A DNA stretch of 64,000 nt from Candidatus Doudnabacteria bacterium RIFCSPHIGHO2_01_FULL_46_24 (GCA_001777575.1 MFEL01000018.1:72264-136263); one strand, 5' to 3'. Counted from the stretch's first letter, positions 12,326 to 48,188 are shown. Notes: a model not told the origin generated them from the letters alone. Numbers and translations: made by a program.

Positions 12326-12367
12326 ATATTAACTCTAGCCCTTCCATATAATTTGTCAAGCAATGAA

Positions 12368-12487
12368 TCCCGTTAGAAATTGGTTGCGCTTAATCGGTAA
12401 TAGGGCGCAATGATAATAATTTTAGTTAAGTCTAGATAGAGCATATTGCATATATTAAAGCCGGAGGTTAATCTATTTCTAACAGGA
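12368..12487. mobile_element. 120-bp MITE-like element, copy 1
   Basis: TIRs TCCCGTTAGAAAT / ATTTCTAACAGGA with TGAA on both sides; homologous in reverse orientation to 46825-46944. Confidence 0.75.
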
Positions 12488-12945
12488 TGAAAATCACAAG
12501 CCCCGCGTTTGAGCACGGCGATATTATCCCCCAAACTTACACTTGCGACGGAATGGACATCAGCCCCCCGCTGTTGTTTATTGACGTCCCGAAAGAAGCC
12601 CAAAGCCTGGCCTTGATTATGGAAGACCCGGACGTGCCCAAGACCATCCGGCCGGACGGCTTGTGGGTGCATTGGCTGGTCTGGGACATGCCGTCGGACG
12701 TCGCGGAAATTCCGGAAGGAGTAGAAGCGCCAGGGGTGATTGGGCAGAATACTTCAGGCGAAGCGCGCTACCATGGCCCTTGTCCGCCCCAGGCCGAGCA
12801 TCGCTATTTCTTCAAGTTGTTCGCGCTGGATATAAATTTAACCGAAGCCCGCATCGCCAGCCGCGAGGATTTTTTCGCCGCCATGGCAGGACATATCTTG
12901 GCTGAAACGGAACTGATGGGCAAATACAACCGACAAAAAACATGA
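12487..12945 (+). CDS. YbhB/YbcL family (PEBP/Raf kinase inhibitor-like) protein
   Basis: YTCDGMDISPPL, DPDVP..WVHW and YHGPCPP..HRYFFKLFALD. Confidence 0.93.
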   Translation: MKITSPAFEHGDIIPQTYTCDGMDISPPLLFIDVPKEAQSLALIMEDPDVPKTIRPDGLWVHWLVWDMPSDVAEIPEGVEAPGVIGQNTSGEARYHGPCPPQAEHRYFFKLFALDINLTEARIASREDFFAAMAGHILAETELMGKYNRQKT

Positions 12946-37829: not shown

Positions 37830-37880
37830 TTATTTCTTGTTGATCAAATTCACGATCAATTTGATGATCGTGTCTTTCTG
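37830..37880 (-). repeat. Duplicated 3' end of the RhuM/Fic gene (direct repeat of 38496-38546)
   Basis: 43/51 nt identical; encodes QKDTIIKLIVNLINKK* versus QKDVIIKLIVNLINKK*. Confidence 0.85.
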
Positions 37881-38495: not shown

Positions 38496-39488
38496 TTATT
38501 TTTTATTGATCAGATTCACGATCAGCTTGATGATTACGTCTTTCTGCGAAGGATCAGACTCCGCCGTCAGCAGCGTCACGGCGGTCAGTGCCGCATCATT
38601 GATCTTGCGCTCGCCGCGCCGGTTGTAAAAAATGTCGTTCTGGATCAGATACTGCAAAAACAGCAAGGATCCGACGCGCTTATTGCCGTCCACGAACGGG
38701 TGCCCCTTGACCACAAAATACAACAAGTGCGCCGCCCGCTCCTCCAAACTTGGGTAAAGCGGCTTGCTGTTAAAAGATTGGTCAATGCTGCCGACGATGG
38801 AAGCCAGCTTGTGGCTGACTTCCACGCCGAACAGATCGCTGGCCTGTTTCGCGTTTTGCAGACGCTGCCGGAAGCGCTTGATGCTTTTGAGCACTTCTTC
38901 ATAGTTAAGCACTCTACCCGGTTTTTCGCTGACATTACTGATCGCCAGTTTCTGCTCATCATACAAATTCAAAACAAACCAGGTGTTGGCGTAGTCGGAA
39001 ATGATTTTCAAAAGTTCGCGTTCGTAGCCCTCGGCCCGATACGATTCCAGCGCCTGCTGGATGAGTTTATGCGCGGTTTCCAGTTCCTTGAGTTTCGCCA
39101 CGTGAGCTTCGGGAAGGCGCTTAGCGTTGACGACAAACCCCTTGATCAGATAGTCGCGCATTTTCTGCGTCGCCCAGATACGAAACTGGGTTGCCCGTTT
39201 GGAATTGACCCTGTATCCCACGGATAAAATAAAATCAAGATTATAAAATTTTACCGGTTTATCAGAATTTGCAATGTGCAAATTTTGCACATTGCTTTTT
39301 TCTGCCAATTCCCCTGATTTTATTATGTTTCTAAGGTGCTTGGCAACAGAACTCCGATCAGTCTGAAAAAGCTCAGAAATGCCAGCTTGGGTCAGCCAGA
39401 CAGTTTCATCATAAAGACTAACCCGCAGTTCCGGGCCGGTTTCGGCCTTATAAATGACAATTTCGCCCTTGTGTTCTTGCTTGTCCAT
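38496..39488 (-). CDS. RhuM/Fic-Doc family protein
   Basis: N-terminal RhuM (YNLDFILSVGYRVNS..FRIWAT) and Fic motif HPFVDGNKR. Confidence 0.92.
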   Translation of the reverse strand: MDKQEHKGEIVIYKAETGPELRVSLYDETVWLTQAGISELFQTDRSSVAKHLRNIIKSGELAEKSNVQNLHIANSDKPVKFYNLDFILSVGYRVNSKRATQFRIWATQKMRDYLIKGFVVNAKRLPEAHVAKLKELETAHKLIQQALESYRAEGYERELLKIISDYANTWFVLNLYDEQKLAISNVSEKPGRVLNYEEVLKSIKRFRQRLQNAKQASDLFGVEVSHKLASIVGSIDQSFNSKPLYPSLEERAAHLLYFVVKGHPFVDGNKRVGSLLFLQYLIQNDIFYNRRGERKINDAALTAVTLLTAESDPSQKDVIIKLIVNLINKK

Positions 39489-42411: not shown

Positions 42412-42837
42412 ATGGTCCAAAGCTTTGAAAATCTCACGCTGAAGCAGGTGAAAAAACTGGCAGCGGACTTAAGTACGCAGCTTAATAACAGCAGAGCCAA
42501 GATCGGGCTGGTCGGAAGCTTAGGCAGCGGCAAGACAACTTTTGCCAAACAATTTGCCCACCGCTTAGGCCGGATCAGACTGAAAAGCCCGACGTTTACC
42601 GTAATTGACACGCATAAATTCGGAAAAAAAATTCTGCACCACATCGACTTATACCGCCTCCGCCATTATTCAGAGCTGCGGGCCATCGGATTTGAAGAAC
42701 TGCTTCAACCAAACACCGTGATTTTGATCGAGTGGGCGGATAAATTTAGGCAAGTAGCAAAACAGTGCGGCTTGCTGATTGAATTTAAGTTTACCCCACA
42801 ACACAATAGACGCGATGTCAAAATTACTTTTAAGTAG
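42412..42837 (+). CDS. tsaE: tRNA threonylcarbamoyladenosine biosynthesis ATPase
   Basis: GSLGSGKTT, SPTF, HIDLYRL and IEWA. Confidence 0.93.
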   Translation: MVQSFENLTLKQVKKLAADLSTQLNNSRAKIGLVGSLGSGKTTFAKQFAHRLGRIRLKSPTFTVIDTHKFGKKILHHIDLYRLRHYSELRAIGFEELLQPNTVILIEWADKFRQVAKQCGLLIEFKFTPQHNRRDVKITFK

Positions 42838-43909
42838 CATAATATTCGCCAGTCTTTTGCTGACGGCCCACAAAGCCGCAGCGGGGACAAATGACGCCGT
42901 CAGTATGCGCAACTGGGGGGCTGTTCAAACAGCCAAATTGGTTTTGCTAAACCAAGCCCCGCCAGCGCCACCCCTGCTTGACCCTGAGGAATTGAGTCAA
43001 ATTGAGGCGGTGGTGGCAGAAACCAATCAAAAAAGTGCCTCAGCCAAACTGGTCATCGAAAACGGACGCGCGGTGGAATTTGAGCGGGGCCAAAACGGCC
43101 AAAGCGTAGACGTATACGCGCTTTCTCAGCTGCTTATAAAACAAGCAGGTCTCGCCTTCGTCCCCATGTTCGTTTCCCAGCCAGCAGTTAACCTTGCCGA
43201 CACCAACAGCCTGGGCATTGCGGAACTCGTGGCCGTGGGCGAATCGGATTTTTCCGGCTCGCCCAAAAATCGGATTCACAACATCAAGGTCGGCAGCGCT
43301 AAATACAACGGCATTATCATCCAGCCAAGTCAAGAATTTTCTTTTAATAAATTCCTGGGCGACGTGGATGCGGAAAACGGCTTTTTGCCCGAGCTGGTGA
43401 TTAAGCGCACGGGTGTCGTGCCGGAATTCGGCGGTGGGCTCTGCCAGGTTTCCTCCACCGCGTTCCGGGCCGCCATGAATGCCGGCCTGCCGATTGTGGA
43501 ACGGCGGAACCATTCCTTTGCCGTTAAGTACTATGCCCCGCAAGGCACGGACGCCACTATTTATCCGGGTTCCACCGACCTGCGCTTCACCAATAATCTC
43601 TCCTCCCACCTTCTGATTTGGACACGAATCGAAGGCTATAAATTATACTATGATTTTTACGGAACCAAAGACGACCGGCTGGTTGAATTTGACGGCCCGA
43701 CCCAGTATGATAAAAAGGCGGACGGCTCCATGAAGGCGATCTGGACGAGGCACGTCAGCTTAAACGGCCAACAGAGCGAGCAAATCTTCAAAAGCACTTA
43801 TCTGCCGCCGGCCCTGTTCCATCCGGAAGAGCAGGCCACTACCCCAAACCCGCAAACGCCGCCGGAGCCTGCCGAAACTACACAACCCACACCAAACGAA
43901 CAGCCATGA
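42815..43909 (+). CDS. VanW family protein
   Basis: RIHNI, FSFN, GGGLCQVSST, RRNHS and DATIY. Confidence 0.9.
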   Translation: MSKLLLSSIIFASLLLTAHKAAAGTNDAVSMRNWGAVQTAKLVLLNQAPPAPPLLDPEELSQIEAVVAETNQKSASAKLVIENGRAVEFERGQNGQSVDVYALSQLLIKQAGLAFVPMFVSQPAVNLADTNSLGIAELVAVGESDFSGSPKNRIHNIKVGSAKYNGIIIQPSQEFSFNKFLGDVDAENGFLPELVIKRTGVVPEFGGGLCQVSSTAFRAAMNAGLPIVERRNHSFAVKYYAPQGTDATIYPGSTDLRFTNNLSSHLLIWTRIEGYKLYYDFYGTKDDRLVEFDGPTQYDKKADGSMKAIWTRHVSLNGQQSEQIFKSTYLPPALFHPEEQATTPNPQTPPEPAETTQPTPNEQP

Positions 43910-43915
43910 CATTAA

Positions 43916-44989
43916 CTATCGCTCTGGTATGACAGCCGTGCCCGTTCTTTCAAAATACTCCCTATCAAAAACCAACTGAAGCAAATCTTGCTCCAAGCCA
44001 TGGCCATTGCAGTGCGTGAGCATACCCAAATACGATTGGATTGTCTGGATAAAAGATCCTTGACTTAATTGCCCGGCTTCAAATTTATTGCGGGCCAGTG
44101 CTATTTTTCTAAACATCCGCCTTTTAGTCTTATTTCTCAAGACTATATGATGGGGCAGAATTATATAGCCCAGAGAATCAATTCCTTGCCCAAATTTTCT
44201 GATCGATACTTTATCGGGGTGCAACGATAGCTGCAGTTCTTGCTGCAAAAGATGTTGAATGGTAGCGCACTGGTTTATCAGCTCGTGTTTATTCGACGAT
44301 AAAATTATAAAATCGTCAGCGTACCGAAAATAATGCCTGGCATGCAGCCGATGTTTAATAAACTGATCTAGTTCATTCAAATATATGTTGGCAAAAATCT
44401 GCGAGCTTAAATTCCCAATCGGAAGTCCTGTAACTCTCTCTCTCTCTCTTGAAAAATTATCCACAACAAAACTTTTAACAACCTCTTCAATTAGCCACAA
44501 AAAGTGTTTGTCGCTGATTTTATTTTTAATTATCTGCAACAGCTTCTGGTGAGAAACGCTGTAGAAAAACTTGTAGATGTCGCATTTGAGCGCAAATACA
44601 TTCCTGCTATTGTTGCGGCTTACCTTTCTTAAAGCGATTGCCAAATTATTAACAGCCAAATGCGTTCCCTTATCCAAACGGGAAGCATAGGAGTGGTAAA
44701 TAAATTTGGGGTCAAATATCCGATACAGTTCATTAAAAATCAGATGATGAACCAGGCGATCACGAACAGTCGCCTTGCTAATAACCCGGTGTTTCGGATC
44801 CCAAATATGGAAAGTAATATAAGGTCCGTGCCGATAAGTCTGATTCTCAAGTTGTCGGTGAAGTTCAAAAATATTATCTTCCAAGTGCCGCTCAAATTCC
44901 AAGACATCCCTCTTCTTTTGTTTCTCTTTCCTAAATTCGTCCCAGCATAAAAATAAATTATCAATATGCAAGAATTGCCTATTCTCCAT
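43916..44989 (-). CDS. DGR reverse transcriptase
   Basis: PKHRVI, RDRLVHH, KGTH, KCDIYKFF, GLPIGNLSSQ (DGR-type SQ) and RYADDF; no maturase or endonuclease domain. Confidence 0.95.
   Translation of the reverse strand: MENRQFLHIDNLFLCWDEFRKEKQKKRDVLEFERHLEDNIFELHRQLENQTYRHGPYITFHIWDPKHRVISKATVRDRLVHHLIFNELYRIFDPKFIYHSYASRLDKGTHLAVNNLAIALRKVSRNNSRNVFALKCDIYKFFYSVSHQKLLQIIKNKISDKHFLWLIEEVVKSFVVDNFSRERERVTGLPIGNLSSQIFANIYLNELDQFIKHRLHARHYFRYADDFIILSSNKHELINQCATIQHLLQQELQLSLHPDKVSIRKFGQGIDSLGYIILPHHIVLRNKTKRRMFRKIALARNKFEAGQLSQGSFIQTIQSYLGMLTHCNGHGLEQDLLQLVFDREYFERTGTAVIPER
44434..44449. repeat. (CT)8 / (GA)8 microsatellite inside RT
   Basis: CTCTCTCTCTCTCTCT encodes RERER just before GLPIGN. 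Confidence 0.9.
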
Positions 44990-45304
44990 AAATTAACCGA
45001 ATTTTATAAAACATTTTATCTCTATCTCGCCTCTTTTCCTCAAAAGGATAAATATGCCCTTGGCGCCAAATGCGAAGGCTATATTATTTCAACTCTTGAA
45101 TTATTATTGGCAGCGGAATACGCCAGCAAAAATCAAAGGCTGCAACTAATACAGCAGGCTTCCGTCAAATTCGATATGCTTAAGTCTTTTATCCGTATCG
45201 CCAAGGAGCTGAAAATTCTGGATCAGAAAAAATACATCCGCCTGGAAGCGGAATTACAAGAGATCGGCCGCCAGCTGGGAGGCTGGCAGCGATCTTTGAG
45301 CTAA
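44966..45304 (+). CDS. avd: DGR accessory variability determinant (Avd-like four-helix bundle)
   Basis: 112 aa; LPILHK, FPQKDKYALG and EIGRQLGGW; lies between RT and TR. Confidence 0.88.
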   Translation: MQELPILHKLTEFYKTFYLYLASFPQKDKYALGAKCEGYIISTLELLLAAEYASKNQRLQLIQQASVKFDMLKSFIRIAKELKILDQKKYIRLEAELQEIGRQLGGWQRSLS

Positions 45305-45316
45305 AGCATAGACGCA

Positions 45317-45433
45317 ACCCGAGGAGGCACACGCCGCCGGAGTAGTTGTCGTTGGCATTCAGATTCCTGTTGTCGAACTTCAACTTGTCGTCGTTGGCCT
45401 TGAAGTAGAGCGAGTGCTGCTTCGACTGCCAGA
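45317..45433 (-). repeat. DGR template repeat (TR)
   Basis: 117-bp copy of the VR; 30 adenines on the minus strand, in codons such as AAC, AAT, AAG and GAC. Confidence 0.95.
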
Positions 45434-45612
45434 ATTTGTCTTTTTCCTTCCACTAGCACCGGAGAATAATTACTTATCCTCCTGAATTTCATTTCGTCCG
45501 CAATGGACGTTGAAAAAAGACAAGTAGTGTCTATACTTTTTGCATGTATAGGATTTCAGCGGCTTAAGTCCGTAAACTTAAGCGCATTAACCTACTTTCA
45601 AGAATAATTTTA

Positions 45613-45652
45613 TAACAAAAGAAAAACGGGAGCAATCAAGGACTGCTCCCGT
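45613..45652 (-). terminator. Rho-independent terminator of the DGR target gene
   Basis: ACGGGAGCA/TGCTCCCGT 9-bp stem followed by TTTTCTTTTGTT on the minus strand. Confidence 0.7.
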
Positions 45653-45654
45653 CC

Positions 45655-45672
45655 GGACTCCTCCGAGAGTCC
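45655..45672 (-). promoter_or_regulatory. Candidate DGR homing hairpin downstream of VR
   Basis: GGACTC-6 nt-GAGTCC inverted repeat 32 nt past the target stop; absent after TR. Confidence 0.55.
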
Positions 45673-45704
45673 AAAACCCAAAACCCGAGAAACCGACGAA
45701 TGCA

Positions 45705-46646
45705 CTACCCGAGGAGGCACACGCCGCCGGAGTAGTTGTCGTAGGCACACAGATCCCCGCAGCCGAACCACAACCGGTCGCCGAAAGCCCTGAAGTAGAG
45801 CGAGTGCTGCCCCGACTGCCAGAGCACTGCGGCACAGTCCAAACCCGGCGTCTGGTAATCGCGCGCCAGCACGTCTGGGTAGGTGGTCAGCGCTGCTGCC
45901 GGCTCGATGACCCCGCACAGCAACACGTCCGCAGGCAGCGTAGCCATCTGCTCCCGATCTGCCGGGATCGAAAATCCCTGCAGGCAGTTCGGGGAATAGC
46001 CCAGCACAACCGAACCTTCGGCCAGCTTGCGCAGCAGGCGGTTGTGGCTTTGGGCCACGACCTTGACCTGCTTGGCCAGTTCCCCTTCGCGGTAGTTCTT
46101 GAAGCTGCGCCCGGGAAATTGCTGCTCGTAAGCCCGCTTGACCCCGGCCAGCAGCTTGTCGTCGGTAAACTGGCCTAGATCGCCAATCTGCATTTTCGGC
46201 AACGCCAACGGCAACACCATGCCATGAGTAGGCAGGTTGGCCATGAGCGGATCAGTCGCGAGACGGCAGAGAATCGCCGCGAACCGCGCTTCGAACTCGT
46301 CAGCTGACATGAACGCGCTGCCGCCGAAGTGCTCCACGAACCGCTCGAGACGCGCCGCAAAGTCCACTTTCGGCTGGTCGAGGTAGAACGACCGGTTCGC
46401 ATCCACAGCCTTGGCCTTCATGCCTTGGGGTGGGATGCGACGGCCGTTGCTGTCGAACAGCGGTTTGATCGGCTCTTCCAGCACGAACTCGCCCGATTCG
46501 TTTTCCGTGTCTGGCTTGGTAATCTTGAAAACGAGCCTGCCGCTCTTCACGGCTAACGCGTTCTCATTACCGCCAAGGTTGCTGATGAGCGAGCGGTAGT
46601 CGTTCCCGCTCCAAGGCCCCAACGTTTCCCATTCTATGAGTTTCAT
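45705..46646 (-). CDS. DGR target (hypervariable) protein of unknown function
   Basis: 313 aa with C-terminal VR, AAGGAGG SD and GC-rich coding sequence. Confidence 0.92.
   Translation of the reverse strand: MKLIEWETLGPWSGNDYRSLISNLGGNENALAVKSGRLVFKITKPDTENESGEFVLEEPIKPLFDSNGRRIPPQGMKAKAVDANRSFYLDQPKVDFAARLERFVEHFGGSAFMSADEFEARFAAILCRLATDPLMANLPTHGMVLPLALPKMQIGDLGQFTDDKLLAGVKRAYEQQFPGRSFKNYREGELAKQVKVVAQSHNRLLRKLAEGSVVLGYSPNCLQGFSIPADREQMATLPADVLLCGVIEPAAALTTYPDVLARDYQTPGLDCAAVLWQSGQHSLYFRAFGDRLWFGCGDLCAYDNYSGGVCLLG
45707..45823 (-). repeat. DGR variable repeat (VR)
   Basis: Encodes the last 38 aa of the target: WQSGQHSLYFRAFGDRLWFGCGDLCAYDNYSGGVCLLG. Confidence 0.95.
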
Positions 46647-46784: not shown

Positions 46785-46824
46785 GGCTGGGTTACAATAC
46801 CAATAAGTATTCATCAACCATGAA

Positions 46825-46944
46825 TCCCGTTAGAAATAGGCCAACCTCTTCCTTTAATATAAGCTCGTTGTTTTATCAAAATTTAAGCAAAATTAATTAT
46901 CATCGCGCTTTGTTTCCGTTAAGCGCGGCTGATTTCTAACGGGA
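46825..46944. mobile_element. 120-bp MITE-like element, copy 2
   Basis: Perfect 13-bp TIR TCCCGTTAGAAAT/ATTTCTAACGGGA with TGAA on both flanks. Confidence 0.75.
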
Positions 46945-48188
46945 TGAAAAAAAATTACCAACCGCCCCAAATCATTCTTGACCGCTACGCCAAAGTTTTG
47001 GTGCGGTTTGCGCTGGGCGGCGGCAAGGGTATCAAAAAAGGCGATGTCGTGCGCGTTTCCAGCAGCGAATCCGGGCGCCAGCTGTATTTAGCCGTGTGCA
47101 ACGCCGTGATTGACGAAGGCGGCCACGTCCTGCCGCATTATTCGCCGGATGACGAACAAGGCGATAAGCGCCGCAACGAAAGCTTTACCCGATACTTCTA
47201 TGAACACGCGCAGGACCACCAGATGGATCACTTCCCGCATAAATATCTCAAGGGCTTGGTCGAGCAGATGGATCATTCAATTTTTATTCTGGCTGATGCC
47301 GACCCGCATGCGCTCAAAGGAGTCAATCCTAAAAAAATTATGCGCCGCGGCGTGGCCTTAAAGCCGTTCATGGACTGGCGGCACAAAAAAGAGTGGCAGG
47401 GCAGATTTACCTGGACCATTGCGCTTTATGGCACGCCGGCCATGGCCGCCGAAGCCGGCCTTTCCCCGAAAGCGTATTGGAACCAAATAATCAAGGCCTG
47501 CTTTCTTGACCAGAAAGATCCAATTGCGAAATGGAAAGATGTTTACCGGAAATTGGAACACTATCGCCGAGCGTTAAATCGGCTCTCGCCCCGAATTGAC
47601 CGGCTCCATGTTGTCGGGCCGGATGTCAATCTTTGGATCAAACCGGGCGAGAAAAGGCTGTGGCTGGGCGGCAGCGGCCGCAACATTCCCAGTTTTGAAC
47701 TGTTCACTTCTCCAGACTGGCGCGGCACTAAAGGTTGGATTCGGTTCAACCAGCCGCTTTATCGTTACGGCAGTAAGGTCACCGGCATTCAACTTTGGTT
47801 TGAAAACGGCCAGGTTATCAAAAGCCAGGCCAGAACAGGCGAAAAGCTGCTGAAAGAAATGATTGCCACGCCTGGCGCCAATAAGGTTGGAGAGTTCTCC
47901 TTAACCGACCGCCGCTTCAGCCGCATCACCAAGTTCATGGCCGAAACGCTGTTTGACGAAAACATGGGCGGGCCCCACGGCAACACCCACATCGCCCTGG
48001 GCATGTCTTACCGCGATACGTTCGACGGCAACGCCGCCAAACTTTCCAAAAAACAAGCCGAGGCCCTGGGGTTCAACGACTCGTCTGTCCATACCGACAT
48101 CATCTCCACCGCGCCCCGCACGGTCACGGCGCATCTGAAAAACGGCCAAGAAAAAATCATCTACAACCGCGGTCAGTTTGTCATCTAA
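46944..48188 (+). CDS. Aminopeptidase (M29, AmpS/T family)
   Basis: NIPSFELFTSP, GEFSL, LFDEN..HIALG and SSVHTDI. Confidence 0.92.
   Translation: MKKNYQPPQIILDRYAKVLVRFALGGGKGIKKGDVVRVSSSESGRQLYLAVCNAVIDEGGHVLPHYSPDDEQGDKRRNESFTRYFYEHAQDHQMDHFPHKYLKGLVEQMDHSIFILADADPHALKGVNPKKIMRRGVALKPFMDWRHKKEWQGRFTWTIALYGTPAMAAEAGLSPKAYWNQIIKACFLDQKDPIAKWKDVYRKLEHYRRALNRLSPRIDRLHVVGPDVNLWIKPGEKRLWLGGSGRNIPSFELFTSPDWRGTKGWIRFNQPLYRYGSKVTGIQLWFENGQVIKSQARTGEKLLKEMIATPGANKVGEFSLTDRRFSRITKFMAETLFDENMGGPHGNTHIALGMSYRDTFDGNAAKLSKKQAEALGFNDSSVHTDIISTAPRTVTAHLKNGQEKIIYNRGQFVI

Follow-up and report, generated by a model that had tools for sequence, protein, structure and literature searches.

In the msr-msd RNA of retrons, reverse transcription is primed internally, from a primer that lies 5′ of the template and is held in place by long-range pairing. 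The priming group of retrons is a 2′-OH (PMC6182149). The diversity-generating retroelement (DGR) of BPP-1, as described in the parts of the work covered here, has a 140-nt spacer after its template repeat (TR), with an Avd-binding hairpin. The spacer primer, Sp47-56, pairs with TR117-129 and is followed by a two-base linker, Sp57 facing TR117, then by a stop strand that pairs with the segment preceding the TR and a short stem-loop with adenosines, and last by a single-stranded ring and a stem that binds the reverse transcriptase (RT) (bioRxiv 10.1101/2023.10.23.563531). In the same preprint, Handa et al. reported that the stop duplex lies downstream in 207 DGRs out of 278, from taxa that include CPR; because the folding covered only 40 nt upstream of the TR, that survey could not have seen an upstream layout. 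Priming in BPP-1 was attributed to an internal 2′-OH in vitro (Handa et al. 2018, PMC6182149) and to a nicked RNA end in vivo (PMC5703328).

Of all distinct DGRs, about 40% are found in CPR bacteria (PMC8632793), whose elements include a DGR clade 2 (Roux et al., bioRxiv 10.1101/2020.04.01.020958). The architecture TR-(avd)-RT was named B3 by Wu et al. 2018 (PMC5758913) and makes up 90% of their CPR set; as far as that paper was covered, a term search of its supplement included, it treats gene order alone, with no mention of an overlap, an RNA layout or repeat tracts. Among RNA motifs found near RT genes, RT-10 is the BPP-1 spacer and the sole RT motif assigned to a DGR in the part of Weinberg et al. 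2017 (PMC5737381) covered, where a role of the other RT motifs in DGRs is offered as speculation.

The window analyzed here is a 64,000-nucleotide stretch from Candidatus Doudnabacteria bacterium RIFCSPHIGHO2_01_FULL_46_24 (GCA_001777575.1, MFEL01000018.1:72264-136263). The genome measures 847 kb and is rated complete, the sequence occurs in groundwater and soil datasets, none of those listed being an RNA dataset, and the host probably belongs to the CPR, judging partly from the names of its RT relatives. The window contains a complete DGR of TR-(avd)-RT layout, composed of the following genes and repeats.

43916-44989, minus strand: DGR RT, an ORF of 357 aa, frame intact, PF00078 over cut-off
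44434-44449, minus strand: (AG)8 tract inside the RT, in frame; candidate phase-variation switch
44966-45304, plus strand: avd, 112 aa, inverted; PF22296 72 bits against a cut-off of 40
44966-44989, both strands: 24 nt shared head-to-head by the two ORFs, avd and RT, without a repeat tract
45317-45433, minus strand: TR, with 45317 as the base predicted to be copied first
45624-45654, minus strand: 14-bp hairpin and T-run after the target gene, a putative terminator or post-IMH DNA hairpin
45705-46646, minus strand: target gene, 313 aa, with the variable repeat (VR) at its 3′ end
45707-45823, minus strand: VR

The RT has the catalytic motif YADD at residue 223 and a GNLSSQ motif, and its next methionine after the start is residue 292. 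Avd, with a predicted pI of 9.3, scores 75 bits against NCBIfam DivGenRetAVD, slightly short of the cut-off of 80. TR and VR differ at 19 of 117 nt, and 18 of these 19 mismatches face TR adenines. The VR ends at the stop codon of the target gene, whose product has no Pfam match and no sequence match in the PDB, its Atlas look-alikes being hypothetical proteins; neither a CLec nor an Ig fold, as in DGR targets, was recognized by these searches. A first-pass annotation of the window had placed target, TR and RT on the minus strand and avd on the plus strand, and the ORF and repeat coordinates agree; both the 24-nt avd-RT overlap and the 12-nt gap between the avd stop codon, ending at 45304, and the end of TR/VR identity were recovered from them. 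The avd borders, which might have been assembly breakpoints, are crossed by contigs of five runs, all possibly the source sample, with 0 differences: X1 and X2 span 43000-45346, and X3, X6 and X7 span 44300-45346, so that the RT/avd junction and the avd stop are both covered. Two runs without a source flag cross the RT/avd junction, also with 0 differences (X8, 44856-45132; X9, 44657-45234). The whole TR is not covered by any single contig, as expected at a repeat.

Several other features were noted in the window. Short tandem GGGTTTT-like repeats directly follow the VR stop codon (45664-45690), ahead of two hairpins. A VanW-like protein (42779-43909), which passes the cut-off of PF04294 and falls far short of those of the NCBIfam vanW models, converges on the 3′ end of the RT. 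An imperfect inverted repeat around an intergenic stretch is present in two copies 34 kb apart (46820-46950 and 12367-12488); the ends of the 46820-46950 copy are common to many contigs of other organisms while the middles differ, and it looks like a widespread small repeat element. Finally, a 51-nt direct repeat, 84% identical, occurs at 37830-37880 and 38496-38546, 666 nt apart, and encloses a gene pair that we take to be a small toxin-antitoxin-like pair.

The inversion of avd is common and already described among CPR DGRs. Order and orientation at the Doudnabacteria locus are those of the published B3 architecture (PMC5758913). We collected GTDB loci with related RTs and kept the best 80 of 315 (L-numbered below); they come mostly from genomes titled as Patescibacteria lineages, and the best of them adjoin TR/VR pairs. 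An adjacent inverted avd is present in 70 of the 76 evaluable relatives, the other four of the 80 having too little upstream DNA. Of the remaining six, one (L013, 2169-3179) is rearranged, its target-TR-(avd) block being flipped relative to the RT with avd still antisense to the TR, and in five (L026, L031, L041, L052 and L065) no adjacent avd was found. These five keep the leader, TR, TR tail and 3′ hairpin described below and show A-specific VR differences, and four of them have a G-run of 9-11 ahead of the RT; avd seems to have been cleanly removed. The same Doudnabacteria genome has a second TR-(avd)-RT DGR (L117; contig C12, 18500-23500), with a G9 run at the junction, upstream primer pairing and a leader without the usual central motif. 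The inverted avd on its own is thus ordinary and its gene order already known; what appears new, in the literature covered, is the probable layout of the RNA.

Alignments of relatives revealed a conserved, structured leader of about 105 nt upstream of the TR. The elements predicted in and around it are, in the order of the minus strand:

45526-45539, minus strand: predicted primer strand, corresponding to BPP-1 Sp47-56 and able to form 11 contiguous pairs with the TR tail
45524-45525, minus strand: two-base linker, equivalent of Sp57-58
45512-45523, minus strand: predicted stop strand b, equivalent of Sp59-70; 12 bp with 45436-45447
45495-45509, minus strand: short stem-loop and three adenosines, resembling in sequence the cPRT-stop stem-loop
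45457-45494, minus strand: conserved A-rich single strand together with a 9-bp hairpin (45461-45482) and a GGTG motif
45436-45447, minus strand: predicted stop strand a, directly ahead of the TR; equivalent of avd369-379 in BPP-1
45430-45551, minus strand: match to the full Rfam RT-16 model (RF03019), 30.4 bits, E 0.063, gathering score 50
45303-45316, minus strand: TR tail, predicted to serve as the template strand in the primer duplex
45261-45295, minus strand: 3′ hairpin, antisense to the last avd codons; candidate Avd-binding stem-loop or terminator

In an unconstrained fold of 45612-45255, four of the five predicted helices form: the primer duplex, stop duplex, leader hairpin and 3′ hairpin at probabilities of 0.5-1.0, the pairs of the primer duplex at 0.78-1.0. 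The weakest element is the short stem-loop at 45495-45509, with a pair probability of only 0.21-0.24. In the leader hairpin, 7/7 pairs covary among 32 short-loop sequences chosen from 49. The stretch 45457-45494 is a candidate for the thumb-ring and RT-binding elements on the basis of its place in the order. The predicted priming nucleotide is 45526 or 45525, an ambiguity that arises because the terminal primer pair is U-U here instead of the usual U-A. The last 2 nt of the TR tail are antisense to the avd stop codon. A local hairpin at 45531-45551 could mask the primer strand; its probability is about 0 in the full fold, and it might form during transcription. Upstream of the primer there is no enrichment of -10 elements (29 of 84 loci, against 40, 15 and 23 in controls).

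The predicted pairings were tested on 63 non-redundant loci (66 with a TR, this locus included, less 3 duplicates) by comparing each strand's own partner with the partners of other loci; these permutations ignore relatedness, and the p values overstate the signal. Own partners are favored between the leader from -150 to -100 and the TR tail (z=-6.7, 0/5000) and between the leader from -125 to -75 and the pre-TR strand (z=-9.8, 0/5000); two control windows were null. In a comparison of 58 loci, the near leader (-70 to -1) gave no signal with the TR tail, whose partner sits further upstream. When the strands were anchored by sequence motifs, 6.79 of 10 positions were Watson-Crick, against 5.20 ± 0.13 in permutations (0/2000), and six shifted registers showed no excess; the terminal U-A of the primer duplex is found in 58/63 loci. 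Test windows and motif seeds had been picked after the pairing was seen here; only a further set of 21 loci, analyzed with the motifs frozen, was held out (30 loci less 2 duplicates and 7 that lacked a usable TR). In this set, primer-tail pairs numbered 7.0 versus 5.70 ± 0.23 (0/5000) and the stop duplex reached -14.5 versus -7.4 kcal/mol; the own partner was best for the stop duplex in 17/21 held-out loci and in 36/63 of the first set. In 32/84 loci, the linker base next to the primer can pair with the base that precedes the TR tail, against 21.8 ± 3.2 permuted (26/20000). Three relatives with a divergent avd and leader type (L006, L010 and L018) also have an upstream segment that pairs with the TR tail. 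A mirror control used 32 of 37 non-redundant BPP-1 relatives, in which the pre-TR strand finds its partner downstream (z=-8.4, 0/3000), the upstream tests being null (z 0.0 and 1.0). The argument rests on the null registers, the held-out set and this mirror control.

The edge of the primer duplex nearly coincides with the end of faithful copying. At TR bases other than A, TR/VR mismatches number 11/1339 in the body and stay at most 9% up to position -2; they jump to 16/25 at -1 and are about 35% or more beyond (66 of 80 loci, 14 with fewer than 6 pairs being left out). Faithful TR-to-VR copying thus ends within 1-2 nt of the edge of the primer duplex, and here TR/VR identity ends at 45317, the base adjoining that duplex. 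A seemingly sharp edge of adenine mutation (14/28 at -1 against 2/35 at 0) was discarded as biased by BLAST alignment ends; in a forced register the figures are 21/41 versus 15/62, and non-A bases diverge at -1 too.

These results support the first-pass annotation's expectation of a different priming RNA architecture, with the predicted partners lying upstream of the TR and not in antisense avd as proposed there. The template RNA is probably a permuted form of the RNA of BPP-1: pairing and copying boundaries suggest that its primer and stop strands lie on the upstream side of the TR. As in BPP-1, the predicted elements run from primer and two-base linker through stop strand and stem-loop with adenosines to single strand and long hairpin, and a hairpin lies just 3′ of the TR; unlike in BPP-1, where the elements come after the TR, only the 3′ hairpin is predicted behind it and the others in front. 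No BPP-1-type downstream spacer with primer and stop strands was found here, and in B3 loci the stop strand pairs upstream. Any homology between the leader and the BPP-1 spacer would lack a match at the sequence level: a model of the leader found 6/7 further B3 loci and had no match in 14 BPP-1-type or phage loci.

We propose the following pathway, in which pairings and boundaries are computed while transcription, priming chemistry and protein contacts are borrowed from BPP-1. RT and Avd would be made from overlapping divergent messages, and a separate RNA of about 350 nt (about 45610 to 45260) would carry leader, TR, tail and 3′ hairpin. Its 5′ leader would fold over the TR and pair with both TR ends. 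With 45539-45526 of the leader paired to the TR tail, RT-Avd would prime cDNA from an internal leader nucleotide, most plausibly by its 2′-OH, the group reported for BPP-1 in vitro. The enzyme would begin copying near 45317, make errors at adenines and halt at the 12-bp duplex before the TR, and the cDNA would then replace the VR. The 3′ hairpin would stay behind the TR, written here into the last avd codons. Because little functional RNA would be needed behind the TR, avd can sit there inverted.

The upstream layout is not tied to the inversion of avd. In Pseudomonas phage PP083311 and Burkholderia phage Magia, avd is co-oriented, a leader of about 150 nt is present and the TR lies 7-14 nt before the RT. 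Among 45 loci of this type, 40 with a TR and 8 non-redundant, all 8 have a TR ending 6-16 nt before the RT and 6-8 upstream primer-tail pairs, with changes on both sides of the pairing by eye, eight being too few for statistics. Phage DGRs with the TR less than 40 nt from the RT (L119, L121, L225, L228, L231 and L233) group together in an unrooted RT tree. We infer a common origin of the CPR and phage leaders; the CPR leader model misses the phage loci given to it. The leader also matches Rfam RT-16 (RF03019) over its full length, with the same central motifs and outer stem; at 30.4 bits against a cut-off of 50 this is a resemblance and not membership, and 10 relatives had no match to the RT families at gathering. 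As in retrons, a primer strand with long-range pairing is predicted 5′ of the template; unlike in retrons, the RT is of the DGR type and TR/VR and Avd are present (retron St85 model, 62 bits against a cut-off of 235). It is rather likely that the TR-(avd)-RT DGRs of CPR and the proteobacterial phage group whose TR abuts the RT share a permuted, retron-like RNA, with RT-16 as its leader. A full-text search of the literature found no description of an upstream-primer DGR RNA in the parts covered, and the table of Handa et al. may include cases.

The element could also be decaying, inactivated by its compact junction and a loss from the RT. L104, the relative closest to this locus at 70% identity across the N-terminal half, has 9 more RT codons after an overlap of identical size, so that 27 nt would have been lost from the RT here. 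These codons belong to the conserved N-terminal helix, and the enzyme may be impaired. This junction is more compact than any other seen: the distance between the aligned cores of the two genes is -24, whereas 69 of 70 relatives have values of 15-160; the L007 value of -86 was set aside as an artefact of an unaligned N-terminus, and aligned cores were preferred because repeat tracts shift the frame and make start codons unreliable for most loci. No VR variants were found among contigs, which drop rare variants. The ORFs are nevertheless all open, catalytic motifs and RNA helices are intact, and the RT N-terminus is as long as those of L005 and L107, making decay unlikely.

The first-pass annotation had read the head-to-head overlap as possible built-in antisense control of mutagenesis. 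The ORFs alone require the two messages, RT and avd, to share 24 nt or more. Read on the opposite strand, the RT ATG is part of avd and encodes a His of Avd, and an ATG stands opposite that codon in 30 of 69 inverted loci, this one included, and in the RT frame in 8; L104 shares the 24-nt overlap. Against a dedicated switch, the start-to-start spacing varies, several relatives having starts that abut or are separated by 0-21 nt, and a promoter search placed none for avd (6 sites against 3.7 ± 1.8 expected). Repeat tracts would be the more direct switch: 54 of 70 junctions carry a G-run or short tandem repeat, and this junction, without one, is accompanied by the (AG)n inside the RT. We therefore doubt that the overlap is such a switch, which is in any case compatible with the permuted RNA, as both can be true.

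The (AG)8 of the RT is the only tract of at least 7 AG units in the 847-kb genome. A tract occurs at the same place of the RT in six relatives; it is in frame in this locus (8 units) and L005 (10), out of frame in L104 (16), L107 (9), L108 (14) and L123 (9), and adjoins an N gap in L008 (19). These loci form one group in the unrooted RT tree (support 0.999) that also holds L007, which has no tract. The five of these relatives with a readable avd junction have no repeat there, and four of them are out of frame at the tract. The RT is probably switched by slippage of (AG)8 and ON in this assembly, to judge from the frames of the relatives. Contingency loci undergo phase variation through simple sequence repeats of variable length. 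The tract resembles them in that its length puts the gene in or out of frame across relatives, and differs in that a mutator would be switched and that length change within this population was not seen: contigs of the Doudnabacteria genome contain no (AG)n length variants. In the literature covered, no description of repeat switches in DGRs was found.

The permuted RNA would itself be misread if the leader-tail pairing were a scaffold or an inhibitory fold and the primer a nicked end, another RNA or target DNA. Covariation shows pairing and not chemistry, and the chemistry of BPP-1 is itself disputed between a nicked RNA (PMC5703328) and an internal 2′-OH (PMC6182149). That the duplex edge falls within 1-2 nt of the end of faithful copying, and that primer, two-base linker and stop strand follow as in BPP-1, speaks for a primer and makes this explanation quite improbable.

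The RNA 3′ of the TR had been expected to be antisense avd, and for the 3′ hairpin of this locus it is, while the primer and stop partners are predicted elsewhere. The hairpin (-24.2 kcal/mol) is more stable than synonymous recodings of the region (-11.1 ± 4.6; 13 of 3000 as stable or more), the region having been chosen after the hairpin was seen. Of 57 inverted loci, 30 have their strongest nearby hairpin ahead of or across the avd stop and 6 have it inside avd; the other 21 have none that reaches -12 kcal/mol. Across 13 window pairs compared in 58 loci, the TR tail showed no own-partner signal with antisense avd in four windows (p 0.06-0.27, at low power), a null of little weight because the tail is null downstream in the BPP-1 group too; the pre-TR strand gave a weak signal (z -2.1 to -2.2, against -2.6 for an unrelated control). 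A hand-drawn spacer pairing in antisense avd at a BPP-1-like distance failed across relatives, with limited power. That antisense avd supplies primer and stop strands downstream of the TR, as the BPP-1 spacer does, is very unlikely: pairings at a BPP-1-like distance can be drawn for the tail (7 bp, near 45239-45233) and, with a bulge, for the pre-TR strand (near 45232-45220), and the latter forms when most of the leader is left out, but the upstream partners are longer and prevail in the full fold, and TR, leader and A-specific VR differences persist in the five relatives that have no adjacent avd.

From a biological perspective, the work on DGR priming covered here rests on BPP-1 alone, with its spacer behind the TR. 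Given that 90% of the CPR set is B3, an upstream primer would mean that the BPP-1 model RNA is not general. If the permuted layout is true, primer, stop and RT-binding elements would lie 5′ of the template in a large share of DGRs, and the space behind the TR would be freed for an inverted avd or for the RT itself. The two chemistries would leave different products: priming by nick and 3′-OH would yield cDNA on a short leader fragment without the TR RNA, whereas priming by a 2′-OH would yield a branched molecule that keeps the TR. The upstream model gives exact nucleotides to mutate, and the cultured phages PP083311 and NC_070954 would be open to assay.
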